Positions 6,455-25,719 of a stretch of 35,326 nt of DNA are shown one piece after another. A model generated the notes under the pieces. The model did not search any database. It was not told the origin of the DNA and saw only the letters and a list, made by a program, of their open reading frames with translations. A program made the translations under genes and the position numbers. Position 1 is the first letter of the stretch. Each line of letters opens with the position of its first letter. This DNA comes from a bacterium (GTDB taxonomy: Bacteria > Patescibacteriota > Gracilibacteria > UBA1369 > GCA-2718715), in assembly GCA_030426295.1 (NCBI GenBank), contig JAUHYY010000002.1:1-35326 (forward strand), given 5' to 3'.

Positions 6455-8064
6455 AATTGAGACATTACGAGTTCGATTACTCGAGCGTATTTTTCGATAA
6501 ATTCGTTTTCGAATATTTCTAGTTTTCTATTTGGATTAGTATAAAGACTTAGAGTTCCAACTAGTTCATCTTTGAAAACTAAGGGTATAAGCATTAATGA
6601 ACAAAGATTGTTTTTCTTTGCTAGTGATTTTGATTCGTATTTTGGTTCTTTACCAACGTCGATTATTTTTAGTGCTTTTCTTTCGGTGAATGCTTTTTCG
6701 TAAAGGCTGTCTTTGTATTTTGCAGTTTTCTTGCCTTGCCAATCTTGTCCTACGCCAAAGCTTGAGACTAGTTCAAGTTTTTTAGTGTCTTTGTCAAAAG
6801 TTCTGAGTACGCAAGCATCTACTTTTGTTAGCATAATAATAGAACTTACAATGAAGTCAGCTAGGCTTTGTCTGTCTGATCTTTCGTTTGCAAGTTCTAG
6901 TAGGTCGAAAATATAGTCATTTTGACGTCTTAGAATACCGAATTGATTGTATGCATCTTTGATTTTTTCGTATTTTATAGTGAGTTCTTCTTCGTATTTT
7001 GCCTGGTTTGTAATGTCTCTACAGATAATTAAATGGTGATCTGATTTGTTTCCGTTTTCGTCGAAGATAGGCGTAAGAGTTGCGGATACTTTTATTGTTT
7101 CGCCGTTATTGTGGAATGCATCTATCTCTAGGTTGTATAGTACGCTTTCTGGTGCAGTCATTTCTTTTGCATCGTAATCATGGAAAAGTGTGTTTAGGTT
7201 TTGCCCAATTATTTCTTCTTCTTTATAACCAAATACCATTTTGGCTCCTTTGTTCCATGATGTGATTTTACCATCTGGGTTAAATACAATTATGGCATCA
7301 CTTGCGTATTTAATTGCACTGTTAAGGATTCTTTCAGTTTCTTCTTTTTCTTTGATTTGTGAAAGGTCAGTAAGTATTCCAATTGTTCCTCCTTCTGGTG
7401 AGGGGCTTCCACTTACTATAACTGGTATTTCTTCACCTTTTTTATTGAGAACTATTCCTTCATAGATTGAGCTAATACCATGTTTTCGTTCTTGTTCATT
7501 TATAGATCTAACTTTTTGTGCAGTTTTTTTCTCCCAAATAAATTCAGGATTAATGTCGATTAGTTCTTCTAATTCGTAACCAGTTAATTTACAGAACTCT
7601 GGATTTGCATAAACTGTTCTTTCGTTTTCGTCACCTACCCATACACCTTCTTTCATGTTTTCAATTAGGGTTTGGTACATTGATTCTTTTTTCTTTAGTT
7701 CGGTCATGTCTGTCATTATTCCGACTGTTCCTCCGTCTGGAAGGGGAGTTCCATTAAGAAATACAGGAATTAGTTCTCCAGACTTAGTTTTTAAGTTTCC
7801 TTCATAGCTAGAGCTTATTCCTTTTTTACGGTGATTTTGATTGATGTATTTTACTTTTTCTGTACTTTCTTCGTCCCAGAAAATGTATGATTCTTCGCCT
7901 ATCATTTCGTCTAGGGTATAACCTAGCATTTCTGCGAATCTTGGATTTGCGTAAACAGTTCTTTCGTTTTCGTCACCTACCCATACAGCTTCGGCCATAT
8001 TTTCAATCAGGCCTTTGTATACGTCCTCAGTATTTAATACTTTCTTCAATTTGTTTTCTTGCAT
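6451..8064 (-). CDS. Cytoplasmic sensor protein with three PAS domains and a C-terminal GAF domain, no recognisable output domain
   Basis: Two near-duplicate PAS units (…VWVGDENERTVYANP.F…GY…E…) and a third PAS (IIVFNPDGKITSWNKGAKMVFGYKEEEIIGQNL…ICRDITNQ). These are followed by a GAF-like segment (VDACVLRTFDKDTKKLELVSSFG…CSLMLIPLVFKDELVGTLSLY). No HisKA/HATPase, GGDEF, EAL or HTH seen. Confidence 0.85.
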   Translation of the reverse strand: MQENKLKKVLNTEDVYKGLIENMAEAVWVGDENERTVYANPRFAEMLGYTLDEMIGEESYIFWDEESTEKVKYINQNHRKKGISSSYEGNLKTKSGELIPVFLNGTPLPDGGTVGIMTDMTELKKKESMYQTLIENMKEGVWVGDENERTVYANPEFCKLTGYELEELIDINPEFIWEKKTAQKVRSINEQERKHGISSIYEGIVLNKKGEEIPVIVSGSPSPEGGTIGILTDLSQIKEKEETERILNSAIKYASDAIIVFNPDGKITSWNKGAKMVFGYKEEEIIGQNLNTLFHDYDAKEMTAPESVLYNLEIDAFHNNGETIKVSATLTPIFDENGNKSDHHLIICRDITNQAKYEEELTIKYEKIKDAYNQFGILRRQNDYIFDLLELANERSDRQSLADFIVSSIIMLTKVDACVLRTFDKDTKKLELVSSFGVGQDWQGKKTAKYKDSLYEKAFTERKALKIIDVGKEPKYESKSLAKKNNLCSLMLIPLVFKDELVGTLSLYTNPNRKLEIFENEFIEKYARVIELVMSQF

Positions 8065-15547: not shown

Positions 15548-15565
15548 ACTAAGACAAAAACTATG

Positions 15566-15611
15566 TGGAGCCACCGACGAGAGTTGAACTCGTGACCTTC
15601 ACCTTACCATG
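15566..15611 (-). repeat. Distal att repeat: displaced 3' part of tRNA-Thr (anticodon loop to CCA)
   Basis: tggagccaccgacgagagttgaactcgtgaccttcaccttaccatg is identical to 21940-21985 and lacks the tRNA 5' half. Confidence 0.85.
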
Positions 15612-15711
15612 TATAAAGGGTCTATTTAATAACTAGTATTTACCTTTAGTAAGCCGATATGTAGGCTCGGGTGGTAGAAATTGAGTTCTGTCTCGAGGGG
15701 TACACCCGTGT
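15603..15711. repeat. 109-nt direct repeat, copy 1 (att core CTTACCAT plus ~100-nt arm)
   Basis: Aligns without gaps to 17087-17195 with about 10 substitutions by hand alignment. Starts with the anticodon-loop core and ends with GAGGGGTACACCCGTGT. Confidence 0.8.
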
Positions 15712-15769
15712 TGAAATTAGCTTAGTTAAAAATGAGTGTAATTTCAAACTAAACTGGTAAACTTATATT

Positions 15770-15907
15770 ATGAATAATTCACCTAAGAAATTAGATAGAA
15801 AAGTAGTTTACGAAAGTGATTGGGGTATTGGAGGTTCGATATTGACTATATTTGTTTGCTCTGGTTTTTTATGCAATGTAGTATTCTTTCGTATTGATTT
15901 ATTTTGA
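15770..15907 (+). CDS. Possible 45-aa small ORF upstream of fic (one hydrophobic segment)
   Basis: ATG 15770, TGA 15905-15907, ending 2 nt before the fic ATG. MNNSPKKLDRKVVYESDWGIGGSILTIFVCSGFLCNVVFFRIDLF. No homology recognised. Confidence 0.2.
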   Translation: MNNSPKKLDRKVVYESDWGIGGSILTIFVCSGFLCNVVFFRIDLF

Positions 15908-15909
15908 TT

Positions 15910-16998
15910 ATGAAACCATTTAAATTATCGAAATTACCGCTTAACAGTTTAGATTGGGAGAAATTTGTTCATCTTATTGGTAAGGCTAATGCAGAGGTGG
16001 CTAGATTTGATGGTTTACTTCAAAGTATGCCAAATCCTGCAGTTTTACTTTCACCGCTAAGTACAAGAGAGGCGGTTTTGTCTTCCAAAATTGAAGGTAC
16101 ACAGGCGACCTTACGAGAAGTATTTGAGTATGAAGCTCAGATGGAAGGTGATGTACGTCGATATGGTGACATTCAAGAGGTTTTGAATTATAGGAAAGCT
16201 ATGAATTTTGCAATTCAAGAGTTAAAAAAAACGCCTTTGTCTACTAGGGTTATAAAGAAAATACATGAGATTCTTATGAATAGTGTTAGAGGTGAAAATA
16301 AGAATCCAGGTAACTTTAGAAAGATTCAAGTTTGGATAGGTAAATCTGGTACAACTCTTGAAACTGCAAGTTATGTTCCTCCTAGTCCTGATGATTTGCC
16401 TGATCTAATGTCTGATTTAGATAAATATTTTCATATTGATGAAAAAGATGTTCTTGTACAATTGGCAATTGTTCATGCCCAGTTTGAGTTAATTCATCCA
16501 TTTTTAGATGGTAACGGTAGAGTTGGTCGTATTCTTATGCCTTTATTTCTTTACTATAAAGATATTCTTTCGTCACCAATGTTTTATTTGAGTGAATATT
16601 TTGAAAGTGATAGAGATGGTTATTATAGTGCTCTTCAAGGTATTTCAGAAAATGGTGATTGGGAAGGATGGATAGAGTATTTTTTGAATGCAGTAATAGA
16701 TCAATCGAAACAAAATATTGAAAAGGCAAAAGCTATACATAAATTGTATGATGTTAAGAAAGAGAAGATAGCAACTTTAACTAGATCAAGATTTGCTATC
16801 AAAACATTGGACTTTATTTTTTCAGTTCCAATTTTTACAACTACTCAATTTAGGGAAAGTTCTGGCGTTCCAAAAGCGAGCACTTCTAGAATGTTAGATG
16901 CTTTAGAAAAGGGTGCAGTTCTCAAAGTTATTCGAGAAAGTGCTGGTAACCAACCTAAGACGTATGCATTTACAAAGTTATTGGACTTAGTTAACTAA
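15910..16998 (+). CDS. fic: Fic-domain protein (AMPylase-type; Fic_N + Fic + C-terminal winged helix), class II auto-inhibited
   Basis: Canonical Fic motif HPFLDGNGRVGRIL (HxFx[DE]GNGRxxR). N-terminal inhibitory motif SSKIEG (S/TxxxE[GN]). C-terminal wHTH (SSGVPKASTSRMLDALEKGAVLK). ATG at 15910 preferred over the track's TTG at 15904. Confidence 0.85.
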   Translation: MKPFKLSKLPLNSLDWEKFVHLIGKANAEVARFDGLLQSMPNPAVLLSPLSTREAVLSSKIEGTQATLREVFEYEAQMEGDVRRYGDIQEVLNYRKAMNFAIQELKKTPLSTRVIKKIHEILMNSVRGENKNPGNFRKIQVWIGKSGTTLETASYVPPSPDDLPDLMSDLDKYFHIDEKDVLVQLAIVHAQFELIHPFLDGNGRVGRILMPLFLYYKDILSSPMFYLSEYFESDRDGYYSALQGISENGDWEGWIEYFLNAVIDQSKQNIEKAKAIHKLYDVKKEKIATLTRSRFAIKTLDFIFSVPIFTTTQFRESSGVPKASTSRMLDALEKGAVLKVIRESAGNQPKTYAFTKLLDLVN

Positions 16999-17086
16999 AT
17001 TCGTGACTTTTCTTGCGTATCATCTATGGAACGCAAAATAAACCGTGTTCCACTTTAGTACATATGTGGAACGCACAGTGAATATA

Positions 17087-17195
17087 CTTACCATTTATAA
17101 AGGGTCTGTTTGGTGAGTAGTATTTACCTTTATTAAGCCGATATGTAGACTTGGGTGGTAGAAATTTAGTTCTGTCTCGAGGGGTACACCCGTGT
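17087..17195. repeat. 109-nt direct repeat, copy 2 (internal att-like site)
   Basis: cttaccatttataaagggtct…gaggggtacacccgtgt is about 91% identical to 15603-15711. It is not preceded by tRNA sequence. Confidence 0.8.
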
Positions 17196-17203
17196 AGAGT
17201 ATA

Positions 17204-17788
17204 TTAGCATATTTCTTTTTGTATTTCTGATAAAGCCTCTTCGTATTTAGTGGTAACTTTATGAAAAAGATTCTCTTTATTATAGTATTTTTCGAGAAAC
17301 TTTAAAAATTCTGGTGCAACCTCCGAATCTTTCTTTATTTCGTTTAAAATATTCTTGAAATTTTTTTTGTTAGAAATTGAGTTTAGGAAGCAAATTGCGT
17401 CTATATTTCGCACTTTTTCTTGTTCAGTTAGCATCGTGAGAGTGATTTCCATGTCATAAAATTCCTTTACAGCTTTTTTGAATTCTAATACTTTTTTGTA
17501 TACATTATTTGAATTGAATATTTTAAATTCTTCTAAATAATCCAATTTTAGTATTAATTCATATTGGAGTGCTGTAGCTTCTGCTTCGCTTTTGATGTTA
17601 GTTTTTAATGTTTCTAAAGTAGTCTTTGCAACAATATTTGCCCCAGTTTGAATGAATTTCTTTAAAAGAGATATTTTTATTTCTATTTTATGTTTATTAA
17701 TATCAAGTTTATATGAAAACCAAGCTGTATATACTCTTGTGAATATACCTGCTAGATATGAAATGAGGGCAATTATGAGATATTCCAT
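17204..17788 (-). CDS. Hypothetical protein with an N-terminal TM helix and a long helical region, 194 aa
   Basis: MEYLIIALISYLAGIFTRVYTAWF (TM) followed by a Lys/Glu-rich helical sequence. Island cargo; no recognisable motif. Confidence 0.55.
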   Translation of the reverse strand: MEYLIIALISYLAGIFTRVYTAWFSYKLDINKHKIEIKISLLKKFIQTGANIVAKTTLETLKTNIKSEAEATALQYELILKLDYLEEFKIFNSNNVYKKVLEFKKAVKEFYDMEITLTMLTEQEKVRNIDAICFLNSISNKKNFKNILNEIKKDSEVAPEFLKFLEKYYNKENLFHKVTTKYEEALSEIQKEIC

Positions 17789-18825: not shown

Positions 18826-19803
18826 ATGAATAAAGGTTTGCCTATAACTATTTATAAACAGAGTGATAGTTCTAAAGATGGTAAGAGATCCATTTGGTTC
18901 TTTTGGGATCAATTTTCTTATATGTATTTAAGGACAGGTAGAAGTGAAGTTACTGTTAAGTCTGTTAAGAGTACTTTAAAGTTTATCACTTCAAATACTT
19001 CTATTTTTTCTATAGAAGACTTGAATAACCCGAGATTGGTTGAAGACTCGTTATTCCATTTAAAGGAAGTGAGAGGGTTTTCAAATTGTACTTATAATTC
19101 GTACAGGAAGAATATTGGTATATTTCTTAATTGGCTCGAGAAGTATGATTACTTGTCTGTAAATAACATTCATAAGGTTGAAAAGTGTAAGTCTAGAATT
19201 GTTGAACAGTTAGTATTAAAGGATGAGGATATTGCTTTAGTTATTACACATATAAGAACTCAATGTGGTTCTAGATTATTAAGATTACGAAATGGTTTCT
19301 TTATTGATTTACTTAGATTTACTGGAGCTCGTTTATGTGAGTTGATGGATTTAAAAGTATCTAATATAACAAAACTTAAAAATGGAGAGTATCGTTTGGT
19401 TATCAGTGGTAGAAAGCAGAAAGGTAGAAATAGATATTATAGGTTAGATTCTTGGGTGCGTGATTCTTATCTAGAGTATATGGAGTACAGAAATAAGCTG
19501 GGTAGAAAAGAAGATAATTTATTTATATCTCAGTCTAAGAGAACGGGATGGACCTCTAAAGGAGTGACAAAATTTTTAAGGAGGATGTCAAAAGAAATTG
19601 GAGTTAATGTTACTTCTTATGGTTTTCGACGGTATGTAGCTACAAAACTGTATTTACGAGGTGTAGAGTTGAGGCAAATAGCTGACTATCTAGGTCATAC
19701 TAGGCTAACAACTACTATGAGGTATGTTGAGAGATGCAGTTTATTGACTGAAAATTGTGGGAAGGTTCTTTTAGGTTGTGTTGATGAGTATGAAGCTAGT
19801 TGA
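18826..19803 (+). CDS. Tyrosine recombinase / phage-type integrase (divergent)
   Basis: Catalytic-domain landmarks: LLRFTGARLCEL (Arg I), YGFRRYVAT (box II with Tyr in place of the usual first His), LGHTRLTTTMRYV (His and Tyr nucleophile). The N-terminal SAM-like core-binding region is plausible. Confidence 0.8.
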   Translation: MNKGLPITIYKQSDSSKDGKRSIWFFWDQFSYMYLRTGRSEVTVKSVKSTLKFITSNTSIFSIEDLNNPRLVEDSLFHLKEVRGFSNCTYNSYRKNIGIFLNWLEKYDYLSVNNIHKVEKCKSRIVEQLVLKDEDIALVITHIRTQCGSRLLRLRNGFFIDLLRFTGARLCELMDLKVSNITKLKNGEYRLVISGRKQKGRNRYYRLDSWVRDSYLEYMEYRNKLGRKEDNLFISQSKRTGWTSKGVTKFLRRMSKEIGVNVTSYGFRRYVATKLYLRGVELRQIADYLGHTRLTTTMRYVERCSLLTENCGKVLLGCVDEYEAS

Positions 19804-19885
19804 TTTGTTGTTCTTTGAAATATTATTTAAAAATCTGTAATATCTAATACTTATTGTGTGTTTTAGATATAACTCATTCGTGTTT

Positions 19886-21001
19886 ATGGATATTCAAAAG
19901 TGTATAGATTGTGAATCTGACTTAGTTGGCGCAGATGTAATCCCTGATTTTTCTAATAAACATATGGATTTAAAATGTCCAAAATGTGGTTATACTATCC
20001 AGTATTCGTTACCAGAGTTAGATAGAAAGGTAATATATTTAGATTCAAATTTTTTAATTAATGCATCGCATGGTGATGTAAATTATTTAAGAATTTATGA
20101 AAAATTGAAACATCTCACTTATACAAAACAAATGGTTATATGTCCTAATTCAGAAGTTCATGAATATGAAGTTTATGGCAGTCCAGCAGGTGATTTTTTA
20201 TTTACTTTGAATGCAGGTATTGGTTTTTCTTATACAGATTCATTATCTAAACTTCAGATTTTTCGTGCTTTTAAAAATTTTCTTTTAGAAAGTAAATCTC
20301 CGTTATATTTGAAAGAAGATTTTTTAGAATCTTCCCCTCAATGGAACTTGCTGAGACGTGGAGGTGCGTGGTCTCATACAAAAATTGTAAAAGACAAAGA
20401 TAAGATTGTAAGAGAATTAGCATCCATTCGTGATGGAAGGTGGTGCAAAGGTGCGGTTATGGAGGATATATTTCAGCATGAGTATTTAGGTTTTTTAAAG
20501 CTCGAAATTGATCGATATGCGCAAAATAGAAGTGGAATGTGCTCTCCAAGTGCGCGTATTTATTCTATAGTCGATTTATTACGGACTAATGGTTATATCC
20601 AAAAGGATATAGTCCATGCATTGAATTCGTTTTGTATTTATATTGGTTATAATTATATCCCTAAATTATTAATAGAGGCAGCATTATTTACTGGTTATGC
20701 TTATGATTATGTGAAAGGAAGTAAGACTAGTATAGATGGAAATACACTTTATGATATCTGGTTTTTAGGTTCTTATTTACCTTTTTGTGATGCAATGTTC
20801 ATAGATAAGCCAATGTTTAATTTGATAAATCAGATAAAAAGTAATCCAGGTAGTCGAGGAGTTCCAGATATAGATGAATATTGTTGCACGAATCTTTTTA
20901 TCCACTCAACTTTGGATGAATTTGAAAATTACTTGGATGATTTAGAGTCAGGATATAAGTATCAAGAAGTTTCAGATAAAATAGGTGTATATTATCCTTA
21001 A
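19886..21001 (+). CDS. Orphan protein with an N-terminal CxxC…CxxC zinc ribbon, 371 aa
   Basis: MDIQKCIDCES…LKCPKCGYTIQY, then VIYLDSNFLINA… and near the C-terminus LGSYLPFCDAMFIDKP, which is reminiscent of PIN-like acidic positions (tentative). ATG 19886 preferred over the track's TTG 19856. Its stop overlaps the stop of the convergent integrase (TTAA). Confidence 0.7.
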   Translation: MDIQKCIDCESDLVGADVIPDFSNKHMDLKCPKCGYTIQYSLPELDRKVIYLDSNFLINASHGDVNYLRIYEKLKHLTYTKQMVICPNSEVHEYEVYGSPAGDFLFTLNAGIGFSYTDSLSKLQIFRAFKNFLLESKSPLYLKEDFLESSPQWNLLRRGGAWSHTKIVKDKDKIVRELASIRDGRWCKGAVMEDIFQHEYLGFLKLEIDRYAQNRSGMCSPSARIYSIVDLLRTNGYIQKDIVHALNSFCIYIGYNYIPKLLIEAALFTGYAYDYVKGSKTSIDGNTLYDIWFLGSYLPFCDAMFIDKPMFNLINQIKSNPGSRGVPDIDEYCCTNLFIHSTLDEFENYLDDLESGYKYQEVSDKIGVYYP

Positions 21002-21894
21002 TTCAGCAAATGCATTTCAATAGATTTACTCATCTGATGGTCAGAGCAGTATAGATATATTGTAGTCGTTGTTATTTTGCTGTGTCCCATGATTTTAGAC
21101 AAAGTGTATATATCGCATCCACCTTCAAGCATAAGAGTTGCGAAAGAGTGCCTGAGAGTGTGAGCTGAGAAGTCTAGTTTTGTTTTGTCTCTTAGTTTCT
21201 TTATCAGGTTGTTGATTCCTTTGTTACCGAAAGGTTTTGGTTTGTGAAGAGATAAAAAGAAGTAGGTTAGTTCTGCATACTTTAGTTTATCTCTGTGTTT
21301 AGTAAATTCTTTTAGGTAAGTATATAGTTTCATGTTCATAGGAATCATTCTATCTTTTCCTCCTTTACCTTGATTAATGAAGATAGTTCGTTTTTCAAAG
21401 CAAATATCATTCATCATTAGATTGCCTACCTCTGACTTACGTAATCCTGCAAAGAGCATAATTGCGATTACAGCTCTATTCCTTATACTTTCGTATTTGT
21501 ACCTATATCTCATGTGGTAGCTAGTATCTAGTACTAATTGTGCCTGTTCTCGTGATAACGTTCTTGGTAGTTTCTTTTCAAGTTTAGGTTTTTCTATAGA
21601 AGCTACATGGTTCTCTTCGATGTAGTTTTTCTCTACTAACCATTTAGCAAAACAGTTTAAATGTTTGTGGTGACTTCTAAAAGTCTCTGCTTGCCATTTT
21701 CGATTAAGTCTTCCTTTGTAGAACCATTGTTCAATGACTTCTTGGTTTAGTTCGCTAATATATTTGATTCCTTGGTCTTTCAGGAATAGTTTAACCGTGC
21801 ATTTGTAGCCATTGGTAGTGTGAGGGCTATAGTTTTTGATGATTGAGCAGTAGTTGAGGTAATTCTCAAATACTTCCATAAGTGAAATTTCCAT
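20998..21894 (-). CDS. int: Tyrosine recombinase / integrase (XerC/D-like), adjacent to tRNA-Thr
   Basis: AGLRKSEVGNL (Arg I), HTLRHSFATLML (H-x-x-R), MGHSKITTTTIYLY (His, Tyr nucleophile). It starts 46 nt from the 3' end of the tRNA. Confidence 0.88.
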   Translation of the reverse strand: MEISLMEVFENYLNYCSIIKNYSPHTTNGYKCTVKLFLKDQGIKYISELNQEVIEQWFYKGRLNRKWQAETFRSHHKHLNCFAKWLVEKNYIEENHVASIEKPKLEKKLPRTLSREQAQLVLDTSYHMRYRYKYESIRNRAVIAIMLFAGLRKSEVGNLMMNDICFEKRTIFINQGKGGKDRMIPMNMKLYTYLKEFTKHRDKLKYAELTYFFLSLHKPKPFGNKGINNLIKKLRDKTKLDFSAHTLRHSFATLMLEGGCDIYTLSKIMGHSKITTTTIYLYCSDHQMSKSIEMHLLN

Positions 21895-21939: not shown

Positions 21940-21985
21940 TGGAGCCACCGACGAGAGTTGAACTCGTGACCTTCACCTTACCATG
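21940..21985 (-). repeat. Proximal att repeat (inside the functional tRNA-Thr)
   Basis: Identical 46 nt to 15566-15611. Identity ends inside the anticodon loop (…cttaccatg). Confidence 0.85.
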
Positions 21986-22015
21986 GTGCTGCTCTACCAA
22001 CTGAGCTACGGCGGC
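21940..22015 (-). tRNA. tRNA-Thr (anticodon GGU), CCA encoded
   Basis: Minus strand GCCGCCG-TA-GCTC-AGTTGGTA-GAGC-A-GCACC-ATGGTAA-GGTGA-AGGTC-ACGAG-TTCAACT-CTCGT-CGGTGGC-T-CCA. It folds as a cloverleaf with one G4:U69 wobble and a 27:43 G/A mismatch. Loop ATGGTAA gives anticodon GGT. Confidence 0.9.
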
Positions 22016-22132
22016 TTATTTTTGAAGAGTCGATAGGTACTCTTCTTCGGGGGTGTGTTATTGACTAGTTTTCAATGTCCGATTATACTGATTGGTTAGG
22101 GACGGAAGCTACTTTGAGTGGAGGGGTACTCC

Positions 22133-22172
22133 CTTACCATGGGAACGCTCTACCAACTGAGCTACGGTGGCT
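22133..22172 (-). pseudogene. Orphan 5' half of a second tRNA-Thr(GGU) (positions 1 to ~43), no T-arm or 3' acceptor strand
   Basis: Minus strand GCCACCG-TA-GCTC-AGTTGGTA-GAGC-G-TTCCC-ATGGTAA-GGGAG, followed by unrelated TACCCCTCCACTCAAAG…. It lies 117 nt upstream of the intact tRNA. Confidence 0.7.
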
Positions 22173-22267
22173 TTTGGTTTTCCGCTATTTGCTAGGGGAA
22201 TATACCTTTTAATCTAAGGGTTTTTCAACTTAAAAATCCTTGACTATAAAACTTAAAGCAAGATACC

Positions 22268-25386: not shown

Positions 25387-25662
25387 ATGTCACAAGTTTG
25401 CGAATATACAGGAAAAAGACCTACAACTGGTCATAACGTAAGTCATTCGAATAGAAAGACTAAAAGAAGATTCCTACCTAATCTGTTTGATGTTAAATTA
25501 ACTGATCCAGAAACTGGTAAGAAGTTTAAAGCTAGACTATCTACAAATGCTATTAAGACTTTCCAAAAGAATCCAAGCAAATTACTTCAATTCGCTAGAA
25601 AGAAAAGAAAACAATTGGAAAGAAAAGCTGAAAGACTAGCAAAGAGAGGGATAACTAGTTAA
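25387..25662 (+). CDS. rpmB: 50S ribosomal protein L28 with a Lys-rich C-terminal extension
   Basis: [33 protein letters not shown] closely parallels E. coli L28 [33 protein letters not shown]. The start is at ATG 25387, not at the track's 25342. Confidence 0.88.
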
Positions 25663-25691
25663 TGGCTAGTAGCTAATGGCTAAATGTGAAA

Positions 25692-25719
25692 AGCAGTGGT
25701 TTTACACCACTGTTTTTTT
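25692..25719 (+). terminator. Rho-independent terminator after rpmB
   Basis: aaGCAGTGGTtttaCACCACTGttttttt. Confidence 0.7.

Follow-up and report, generated by a model that had tools for sequence, protein, structure and literature searches.

A SoFic-type Fic gene between direct repeats next to a tRNA-Thr island of a Gracilibacteria genome, a probable relic of serial integration

Introduction

Xer-dependent dif modules, such as those of Acinetobacter plasmids, and integron cassettes are short units, often of a single gene, that encode no recombinase themselves and lie between repeated sites for tyrosine recombinases of the Xer-like or integron type. The dif modules use 28-bp XerC/D sites, and the attC sites of integrons are folded hairpins. 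CPR bacteria have tiny genomes, in which few mobile elements have been described.

Tandem accretion of integrative elements and CIMEs, as in ICESt1/ICESt3 of Streptococcus thermophilus, proceeds by integration, decay, and a second integration; the formation of such tandems through accretion and decay has been documented (PMC5704250). Islands in tRNA genes, found on the Islander principle, can also form tandem arrays, of which 125 are known in Islander (PMC4383910). Here, we describe a Fic gene lying between two direct repeats beside a tRNA-Thr island in the window, i.e., the whole analyzed stretch of 35,326 nucleotides of contig JAUHYY010000002.1 from a member of Gracilibacteria, and compare the locus with these systems.

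Results

Direct repeats and the Fic module

The window contained a gap-free direct repeat of 112 nt with 90% identity (15603-15714 and 17087-17198), for which BLAST gave 109 nt, 10 mismatches, and 0 gaps. These values agree with the first-pass annotation, which had aligned about 109 nt by hand with some 10 substitutions and no indels, and had placed the repeat start at the complement of an anticodon loop and half of the substitutions in a single patch. Indeed, both copies start with the loop complement of tRNA-Thr(GGT), CTTACCAT, and end in GAGGGGTACACCCGTGT / GAGGGGTACACCC, and 5 of the 10 substitutions sit in the patch ATTTAATAAC / GTTTGGTGAG. The repeat copies, hereafter called arms, and the features at and between them are as follows:

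15561..15611, minus strand, displaced tRNA-Thr(GGT) 3' half (tRNA positions 31-76 plus 5 nt), outer island boundary
15603..15714, minus strand, arm copy 1, outer, complete attR-type site (arm profile E=8e-18), with the loop complement CTTACCAT at 15603-15610 and a 16-nt box at 15692-15707
15770..15907, plus strand, 45-aa ORF, hydrophobic at its C-terminus, annotated as a gene on the source contig
15910..16998, plus strand, Fic gene, class II, with a wHTH tail, SoFic-like (Pfam Fic_N 2.5e-27, Fic 1.1e-22)
17087..17198, minus strand, arm copy 2, internal, with the loop complement at 17087-17094 and the box at 17176-17191

Only the 45-aa ORF and the Fic gene were identified between the arms, with no integration or transfer genes and no recombinase, so that the earlier description of a recombinase-less Fic module was confirmed. 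The stop codon of the 45-aa ORF, which had no family match, lies 2 nt before the Fic ATG. The Fic protein carries HPFLDGNGR (HPFLDGNGRVGR) and, in its translated N-terminus, SSKIEG (SxxxEG). Class II Fic proteins are recognized by HxFx(D/E)GNGRxxR together with an N-terminal (S/T)xxxE(G/N) inhibitory motif; both were present in addition to the Fic_N and Fic domains, which supports the class II assignment made at first reading. By its sequence, the predicted protein matches the SoFic anti-phage model: it matched the PADLOC SoFic model over its full length (1.4e-120) and scored 181 bits, under the 550-bit cut-off, against the NCBIfam SoFic equivalog.

The closest homologues of the Fic protein (67-69%) lie in type I R-M operons, between hsdM and hsdS. 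The gene was nevertheless rejected as a fragment of such an operon, as tblastx revealed no hsdM or hsdS remnant around the Fic gene of the window. A phage or plasmid origin was also rejected, since the matches were short and covered the Fic core only.

tRNA-Thr pieces and the resident island

On the far side of arm copy 2 lies the resident island, with two recombinases next to a tRNA gene:

17204..17788, minus strand, hypothetical 194-aa cargo gene of the resident island, no family matches
18826..19803, plus strand, IntB, second Xer-like tyrosine recombinase (Pfam Phage_integrase 6e-21)
19856..21001, plus strand, hypothetical 381-aa gene between both recombinases, no family matches
20998..21894, minus strand, IntA, 298-aa Xer-like tyrosine recombinase (Pfam Phage_integrase 3.2e-34)
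21940..22015, minus strand, resident intact tRNA-Thr(GGT) (ARAGORN; Rfam tRNA 62.9 bits)
22016..22117, minus strand, spacer X, from the attL box to the resident tRNA, alignable with related locus L010
22118..22133, minus strand, box GGGAGTACCCCTCCAC, attL junction, directly 3' of the anticodon loop of the upstream half
22134..22171, minus strand, upstream tRNA-Thr 5' half (positions 1-38; repeat family D4)

Positions 15566-15611 are identical to 21940-21985 (46/46 by BLAST; alternatively 51 nt at 96%), and this identity stops at the anticodon loop of the intact tRNA-Thr(GGT), as the first-pass annotation had stated. Its overall layout held in part: the far-end 3' fragment, the arms, and the two recombinases in the rest of the island were all found in place, but the near end is not a plain core followed by a tRNA, because an additional 5' half lies upstream. 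This half, a third tRNA-Thr piece that the first-pass annotation had overlooked, has the acceptor strand GCCACCG, the anticodon-stem strand TTCCC, and the loop ATGGTAA, and the box following it, GGGAGTACCCCTCCAC, is the same box that ends the arms. Upstream of the half, a putative promoter (TTGAAA-N18-TATATT) was read by eye. Another box-like sequence, GAGTACCTATCGAC, is located within spacer X.

IntA lies 45 nt 3' of the tRNA-Thr gene and has more than 2000 homologues, usually adjoining a tRNA among the genome loci fetched. IntB is encoded on the opposite strand, and a partner gene was found at its position in nearly all relatives with downstream sequence; the 381-aa gene is missing from its position in L010 and L012. 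Both recombinases scored far under the cut-offs of the XerC, XerD, and IntI models, and against integron-integrase models IntA reached 101 and 62 bits (cut-offs 265 and 435, respectively) and IntB 28 bits. A housekeeping Xer function of IntA was considered because of its many homologues with 55-60% identity. It was rejected as the only interpretation on two grounds: IntA is enclosed by the two halves of a split tRNA, and one genome (L014/L015) has two paralogous copies.

The island family in related genomes

We compared the window (WIN) with about 30 related loci (L-numbers), each with 10 kb on either side, a span beyond which many far ends lie. The arm was the standard far-end piece of an island family in Peregrinibacteria and Gracilibacteria, with fixed landmarks: the 16-nt box GGGTGTACCCCTCGAG, a spacer of about 82 nt, and CATGGTAAG, after which a tRNA-Thr 3' half normally comes. 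At the far ends of WIN, L019, L024, L032, and L038, the box is followed after about 80 nt by ATGGTAAGG and the 3' half, and arm copy 1 thus has the same architecture as the far ends of the other four. The offset from box to loop was constant (97-99 nt). An nhmmer profile detected about 20 arms in 14 islands. They always lie on the integrase strand, downstream of the cargo, and a tRNA-Thr 3' half came next in approximately 17 of the 20. At attL, the box directly followed the loop in 18 of 29 loci with at most 5 mismatches, and the exact 16-mer was present in the distant L012/L015 and in L035. A group I intron in the tRNA-Thr of L012 was also considered and rejected, with no support from Rfam.

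A typical island begins with the host tRNA 5' half, the loop, the 16-nt box, a spacer of about 100 nt, a complete tRNA-Thr, and IntA. It continues with an opposite-strand IntB within 0.8-4 kb, the cargo, the arm (box, 82 nt, loop), and the host tRNA 3' half. These islands are small (about 6 to more than 10 kb) and carry two Xer-like tyrosine recombinases. By comparison of these loci, the 112-nt repeat is identified as the predicted element-side arm of the right-hand attachment site of the family, and the family itself is common in Peregrinibacteria and Gracilibacteria, where it is predicted to recombine in the anticodon loop of tRNA-Thr(GGT). Literature searches returned no match for it, and it is apparently undescribed as well as widespread.

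At least 10 relatives have, about 150 nt upstream of the resident tRNA, a 5' half that pairs with the far-end 3' half, indicating that these islands interrupt the host tRNA and supply a copy of their own. In 10 relatives, this pairing was 5/5, against 2-3/5 Watson-Crick pairs with the resident tRNA, which fixes the insertion boundaries at the two loops. The history of the window is less clear than that of its relatives, since its far-end 3' half pairs about equally with the resident and upstream 5' halves and is 46/46 identical to the 3' half of the resident tRNA; gene conversion or an older element of the classical type must be invoked. In addition, two upstream 5' halves would be expected from simple nested integration, but the window contains just one.

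L010 shares the host flanks of the window (PadR 95%, M50 84%) and has unrelated cargo; its IntA is 76% identical to that of the window, like the host proteins, and its IntB only 41%. L103 is another island with different cargo. Together, L010 and L103 show island turnover at the same chromosomal site.

Islands with more than one arm

Two or more arms bracketing short recombinase-less modules were found in 5 of the 14 islands with a detected arm (WIN, L019, L021, L030, and L036). In L019, the arms are spaced 1123 nt apart around a gene with a methyltransferase domain (Pfam), and the internal arm ends with the loop followed by unrelated DNA, the same internal junction as in the window. In L021, L030, and L036, full 3' halves come after the internal arms. 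Read by eye, the two 3' halves of L036 differ in both T-stem strands, which suggests two once-functional tRNAs. Module orientation varies, the L030 ORF lying on the sense strand.

The 17-arm alignment bears on whether the arm was simply copied within one island by unequal crossing-over or replication slippage, leaving the Fic gene as ordinary cargo between the copies. Such an origin would accord with the 90% identity of the two copies in an island in which nothing else is repeated, with the single position at which the L019 arms differ, and with the identical 3' halves of L021. Nevertheless, arm pairs ranged from near-identical to visibly very divergent, a range that fits independent elements and not one local duplication. 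The arm pairs of L021 and L030 are very divergent and the 3' halves of L030 differ, so these are not recent local copies, and it is improbable that, by chance, a duplicated stretch of arm and loop would have its end precisely at the loop in two islands that are unrelated. We therefore regard local duplication as very unlikely.

Constraint on the arm

The first-pass annotation had attributed the near-invariance of the arm to protein-binding sites or to an RNA. For the latter, i.e., a small RNA or a 5' leader of the cassette gene, one could cite the conserved blocks of most arms, including a short GGCTT-N4-AAGCC dyad, and the position of the arm upstream of Fic in the gene orientation. However, RNAalifold predicted no pairs on the 17 arms, folding z-scores of -0.7 to +0.3 on both strands did not differ from those of shuffled sequences, and Rfam gave no match at the gathering threshold or at E<=1. 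Moreover, the arms of the window lack the 3' partner of the dyad, and the one promoter-like site upstream of Fic (15743-15771) is not within the arm. A structured RNA is thus hardly credible. The box and the GGCTT/AAGCC dyad most likely serve to bind proteins of the recombination complex.

The internal arm and searches for variants

The outer arm of the window leads into a complete tRNA 3' half, whereas arm copy 2 has no adjoining 3' half and retains only the 8 nt of tRNA-derived core, CTTACCAT. To the right of its loop, we found no tRNA or box half-site and no box, spacer, or tRNA of its own, and an A replaces the near-invariant C immediately 5' of ATGGTAAG. These features speak against the earlier view that the Fic module is flanked by two recombination-competent-looking sites. 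A decayed tRNA 3' half beside the internal loop was considered and rejected: the 8-mer TCCACATA was the only match, and 414 of 5000 shuffles scored equally well (p ~0.08).

No variant lacking the Fic module, no circle junction, and no other cassette between the same arms was found by exact-protein look-ups or arm pattern scans. The look-ups (Fic, IntA, PadR, the 194-aa gene, and a 99-aa flank gene) yielded only this arrangement, or else unitigs that break off at the tRNA repeat. One Logan unitig crosses arm copy 2 unbroken at 100% identity, and two others, from different samples, stop within it at 17139/17140. Arm pattern scans gave nothing in genome contigs, for which the pattern was too specific, or in viral contigs, and one further true arm (L095) plus one chance match in JGI metagenomes.

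Discussion

Serial integration followed by decay best accounts for the locus, with a probability of roughly 0.68; on this account, the Fic gene would be the remnant of an older island beside which a newer one landed. The tRNA-Thr site would have been used at least twice. What remains of an older related element would be the displaced tRNA half, an arm, and, as distal cargo, the SoFic-type Fic gene. The present island, which comprises IntA, IntB, arm copy 2, and the genes of 194 and 381 aa, would have integrated later, on the tRNA side. The recombinase genes of the older element and whatever came after the internal loop would then have been lost. The break lies exactly at the loop in both the window and L019, suggesting a deletion made by the recombinase itself. 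Such a two-step history with loss would make the Fic module an accretion relic. Of the tandem accretion proposed at first reading, the duplication of att-site arms by more than one element is retained, but not present-day mobility, given an internal core of 8 nt and the lack of a Fic-less variant; the module is probably no longer excisable on its own. In the lineage of the window, the searches recovered no empty site, single-arm variant, or Fic-less variant that would separate the integration events, and no remnant of the older element's integrase or tRNA was detectable.

The main competing explanation treats arm plus loop as functional, with IntA and IntB excising, capturing, or shuffling the Fic module and similar single-gene modules in trans, much like integron cassettes, Xer-dependent dif modules, or CIMEs. 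In 5 islands, discrete arms of constant length are arrayed around one- or two-gene modules, the internal junctions of WIN and L019 end exactly at the loop like a recombinase-made junction, two Xer-like recombinases are encoded next door, and the two broken unitigs come from different samples. We nonetheless consider an active, cis-mobilizable module rather unlikely: the internal site lacks a right-hand half-site and is substituted at the near-invariant position beside the loop, and the internal arms of most relatives have whole tRNA 3' halves, for which serial integration into tRNA genes is simpler. Furthermore, neither a circle, a deletion junction, nor an alternative cassette between the same arms was found, the unitig of another sample passes copy 2 unbroken, and the modules, as in L030 with its sense-strand ORF, are not uniformly oriented.

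A broader proposal, which we hold to be decidedly improbable, is that the arm is a working cassette boundary at which the two recombinases capture, stack, and exchange single defence genes, SoFic among them, at the tRNA-Thr of CPR bacteria. If true, this would be a gene-shuffling platform, integron-like or dif-module-like, built on a tRNA anticodon loop, and its IntA-tRNA part would be semi-resident, in line with the contrast between WIN and L010 (IntA 76%; IntB 41%, cargo unrelated).

The family usually leaves the host tRNA-Thr split, supplies its own tRNA, and carries defence genes. The repeated arms suggest reuse of the site and survival of older cargo as relics, in this case a SoFic-type gene, by which the site may act as a hotspot for the accumulation of defence genes. 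In addition, the conserved 16-nt box and the fixed 98-nt spacing are concrete biochemical targets in a two-recombinase, Xer-like integration system.

Comparison with known systems

The Fic gene resembles the SoFic single-gene anti-phage system (PMC12249575) in its full-length model match, Fic motif, and SxxxEG motif, but differs in lacking a downstream AS1-like small gene and having the 45-aa ORF upstream instead.

Like classical tRNA islands, the family has a tyrosine recombinase by the tRNA, a crossover in the anticodon loop, and a displaced 3' fragment at the far end. Classical islands regenerate the tRNA by fusing island sequence to the host 5' part (PMC4383910), whereas in at least 10 relatives the host tRNA stays split and is replaced by the complete tRNA-Thr carried by the island, the window being ambiguous in this respect. 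The two recombinases and the conserved 106-nt arm also set this family apart.

In contrast to the sites of dif modules and integrons, those of this locus are direct repeats of 112 nt linked to the anticodon loop of a tRNA. Neither an IntI-type integrase nor attC-like imperfect hairpins (no consensus pairs) were found.

The locus shares with CIMEs and ICESt1/ICESt3 a recombinase-less module beside a related recombinase-bearing element, a single tRNA-type site, and repeated att sequences. Compared with ICESt1/ICESt3, the window has no conjugation or mobilization genes, and the hosts are CPR bacteria. A CIME keeps both of its own att sites, whereas the Fic module keeps only the outer one, and its inner boundary is the arm of its neighbour with 8 nt of core.

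Layout of the repeats and the island

The direct repeat reported in the first-pass annotation was recovered as two gap-free copies of a 112-nt arm with 90% identity (109 nt with 10 mismatches by BLAST). Both copies open with CTTACCAT, which is complementary to the tRNA-Thr(GGT) anticodon loop, and finish with GAGGGGTACACCCGTGT, and a 16-nt box, GGGTGTACCCCTCGAG, forms the distal end of both. The window, which is contained in a 42-kb JGI metagenome contig, carries the following features.

15566-15611, exact second copy of the 3' 46 nt of the resident tRNA (BLAST)
15603-15714, arm copy 1 (outer)
15770-15907, plus strand, 45-aa ORF
17087-17198, arm copy 2 (inner)
18826-19803, plus strand, recombinase IntB
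20998-21894, minus strand, recombinase IntA
21940-22015, minus strand, intact (resident) tRNA-Thr(GGT)
22118-22133, minus strand, near copy of the box, GGGAGTACCCCTCCAC
22134-22171, minus strand, tRNA-Thr 5' half

The exact 46-nt tRNA repeat marks the boundary of a 6.4-kb island. As previously proposed, the module between the arms lacks a recombinase and contains just the 45-aa ORF and the Fic gene; two tyrosine recombinases and hypothetical genes make up the remainder of the island. The earlier layout required two corrections. In the inner copy, the 8-nt loop is all that remains of the tRNA-derived core. A decayed tRNA end was suspected beside this loop, but the match was not significant. In addition, the earlier account lacked the tRNA-Thr 5' half, which precedes the resident tRNA by ~150 nt on its upstream side and is directly followed by the nearly identical box GGGAGTACCCCTCCAC.

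Elsewhere in the window, ARAGORN predicted a 90-nt tRNA-Ile (AAT) at 25630-25719 (plus strand) that shares its first 33 nt with the 3' end of the ribosomal protein L28 ORF; this call is probably a false positive because it was unconfirmed by Rfam. A 119-nt direct repeat (7559-7677 and 7901-8019, 74% identity, spaced 342 nt) within a multi-PAS-domain sensor gene most likely reflects repeated PAS domains.

Cargo and recombinases

The Fic protein contains Fic_N and Fic domains with the motifs HPFLDGNGR and SSKIEG, the latter being the SxxxEG motif noted earlier. It gave a full-length match to the PADLOC SoFic model (1.4e-120) and fell under the cut-off of the NCBIfam SoFic equivalog; SoFic has been described as an abortive-infection toxin (PMC12249575). 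The closest homologues (67-69% identity) are encoded within type I restriction-modification operons, between hsdM and hsdS (L097, 6339-11322; L098, 790-5937; L100, 462-5025), and no hsdM or hsdS remnant flanks the Fic gene of the window. The 45-aa ORF, which has a hydrophobic tail and stops 2 nt short of the Fic start codon, had no family match and is missing upstream of the closest Fic homologues. Both recombinases are Xer-like; their scores against the XerC, XerA, and XerD models were all under cut-off, and the best PDB match was 4a8e.

Relatives and turnover at the integration site

More than 2000 IntA homologues (~298 aa) were found, named in Peregrinibacteria, Gracilibacteria, and other Patescibacteria. 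Among 80 loci compared around homologues from species-representative genomes, the integrase gene was in most cases just 3' of a tRNA. Members of the Peregrinibacteria/Gracilibacteria clade have Thr-GGT at this place; the more distant ones have Lys, Met, Val, or Ala. The closest relative, L010, has host flanks in common with the window (PadR 95%, M50 84%, PspC 73%), with 76% identity in IntA, only 41% in IntB, and unrelated cargo. In a related genome (L103), the TrmB side carries reverse-transcriptase cargo together with a divergent arm and a tRNA-Thr 3' half. These comparisons mark the integration site as a turnover hotspot.

Anatomy of the island family

Within the 29 loci of the Peregrinibacteria/Gracilibacteria clade, a tRNA-Thr 5' half was located 125-190 nt upstream of the resident tRNA in 24 (25 when L015 is counted by eye), and the box (<=5 mismatches) directly followed the loop of this half in 18. 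In 24/29 loci, among them all those with at least ~9 kb of downstream sequence, a second recombinase (IntB) was encoded on the opposite strand within 0.8-4 kb. The far end, where inside the fetched 10 kb, always consisted of the box, ~82 nt, CATGGTAAG, and a tRNA 3' half, with a constant box-to-loop offset of 97-99 nt. A search with a profile made from these arms identified ~20 arms in 14 islands, every one on the integrase strand and ~17 followed by a tRNA 3' half, as well as one more arm in an unrelated metagenome. These results support the earlier reading of the repeats as att arms: since every arm seen is an att-site component, the sequence is not a generic repeat widespread outside att contexts. 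The arm was not found in viral contigs, and no counterpart of the window island was found among phage or plasmid records.

Conserved blocks of the arm are the box, a GGCTT-N4-AAGCC dyad with an A-run after it, and the loop; the box also occurs at attL (the junction on the tRNA side) and, at several loci, a short way upstream of the resident tRNA. This pattern fits putative protein-binding sites. The arm was also considered as an RNA, and this reading was rejected: 17 arms had no consensus pairs, fold energies were no better than those of shuffles on either strand, and there was no Rfam match. Constraint on the arm, argued earlier from the near-invariance of the two copies, holds at the family level but is weak for the pair alone, because their ten differences are mostly in family-variable columns.

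Origin of the two arms and present mobility

Two or more arms were present in 5 of the 14 arm-bearing islands (the window, L019, L021, L030, and L036). In L021, L030, and L036, a full tRNA 3' half follows every arm; in the 17-arm alignment, the paired arms of L021 and L030 can be seen to differ strongly, and the two 3' halves of L036 differ on both T-stem strands (by eye). The arms of these three islands appear to be what is left of separate elements, which used tRNA-Thr copies one after another. L036, a single-cell genome contig (18560-20240, 9633-9750, and 5251 on the minus strand), has at least three arms in an array: two complete ones, 564 nt apart and with distinct tRNA 3' halves, and an interrupted third. 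It also has an arm-like unit with a good tRNA 5' half upstream of attL, and a lone box on the opposite strand with the same upstream context. L019 matches the window exactly, with two near-identical arms 1123 nt apart and one gene between; after its inner arm come CATGGTAA and, beyond it, unrelated DNA.

Serial integration followed by loss of the recombinases of the older element is a documented route to tandems (PMC5704250). Such accretion, as proposed in the first-pass annotation, is the best explanation and fits all five multi-arm islands. If a newcomer entered at the resident attL, the internal attP-like site so created could be resolved against the tRNA of the older element, which would account for the single upstream 5' half. 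The break exactly at the loop in the window and L019 suggests a deletion made by the recombinase against a secondary site. The two-armed Fic locus itself is a further case of an already established process.

The further claims of two recombination-competent sites and mobilization in trans gained no support. The inner site has neither a box nor a tRNA half-site right of the loop, it has A 5' of ATGGTAAG where 93% of the other aligned arms have C, and nothing shows the module to be mobile at present. Exact-protein look-ups for variant arrangements in four datasets returned the same arrangement each time, and one unitig runs through copy 2 into Fic with 100% identity. The Fic unitigs of SRR24442557 and ERR3420974 (Logan) both stop at 17139/17140, inside copy 2. 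No repeat of at least 30 nt explains this stop, which the unitig of a third sample passes; it could be a graph branch or population variant, or low coverage.

Fate of the host tRNA

In 10 loci (L017, L019, L021, L024, L026, L028, L030, L034, L036, and L038), the upstream 5' half forms 5/5 Watson-Crick pairs with the anticodon-stem strand of the far-end 3' half, against only 2-3/5 for the 5' half of the resident tRNA, and the acceptor strands were consistent with the former pairing. This indicates that the host tRNA was split by the islands, which carry a replacement. In L022, L023, L034, and L038, the box after the upstream loop showed no covariation with the host half, indicating that it is element DNA and that the crossover is in the loop. 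Hence the 10 islands enter the anticodon loop, the host gene stays split, and a complete tRNA-Thr of their own lies between the junction and IntA. L032 is a classical member without the upstream half. The window itself is ambiguous in this respect: its far-end half is identical to the 3' half of the resident tRNA, and pairing with either 5' half is of about the same quality.

A promoter-like TTGAAA-N18-TATATT is located just upstream of the tRNA 5' half of the window (22190-22240, minus strand) and is kept in L010 (by eye). If it is active, the promoter of the host tRNA would drive the island-borne tRNA through the half, the box, and the spacer. Separately, the resident tRNA-Thr of a Gracilibacteria locus (L012, 9662-9945, the same as L015) was missed by ARAGORN and has a ~210-nt insertion in its anticodon loop (CCCATGGT before and AAGGGAGGGGTC after), for which Rfam returned neither a group I intron nor another family even at E<=1.

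No description of this island family was found in the literature searched. The family is an unusual variant of tRNA-targeting islands: whereas the rule for such islands is that the split gene is regenerated by island sequence (PMC4383910), the host gene of the 10 relatives stays split and the islands carry their own complete tRNA-Thr.
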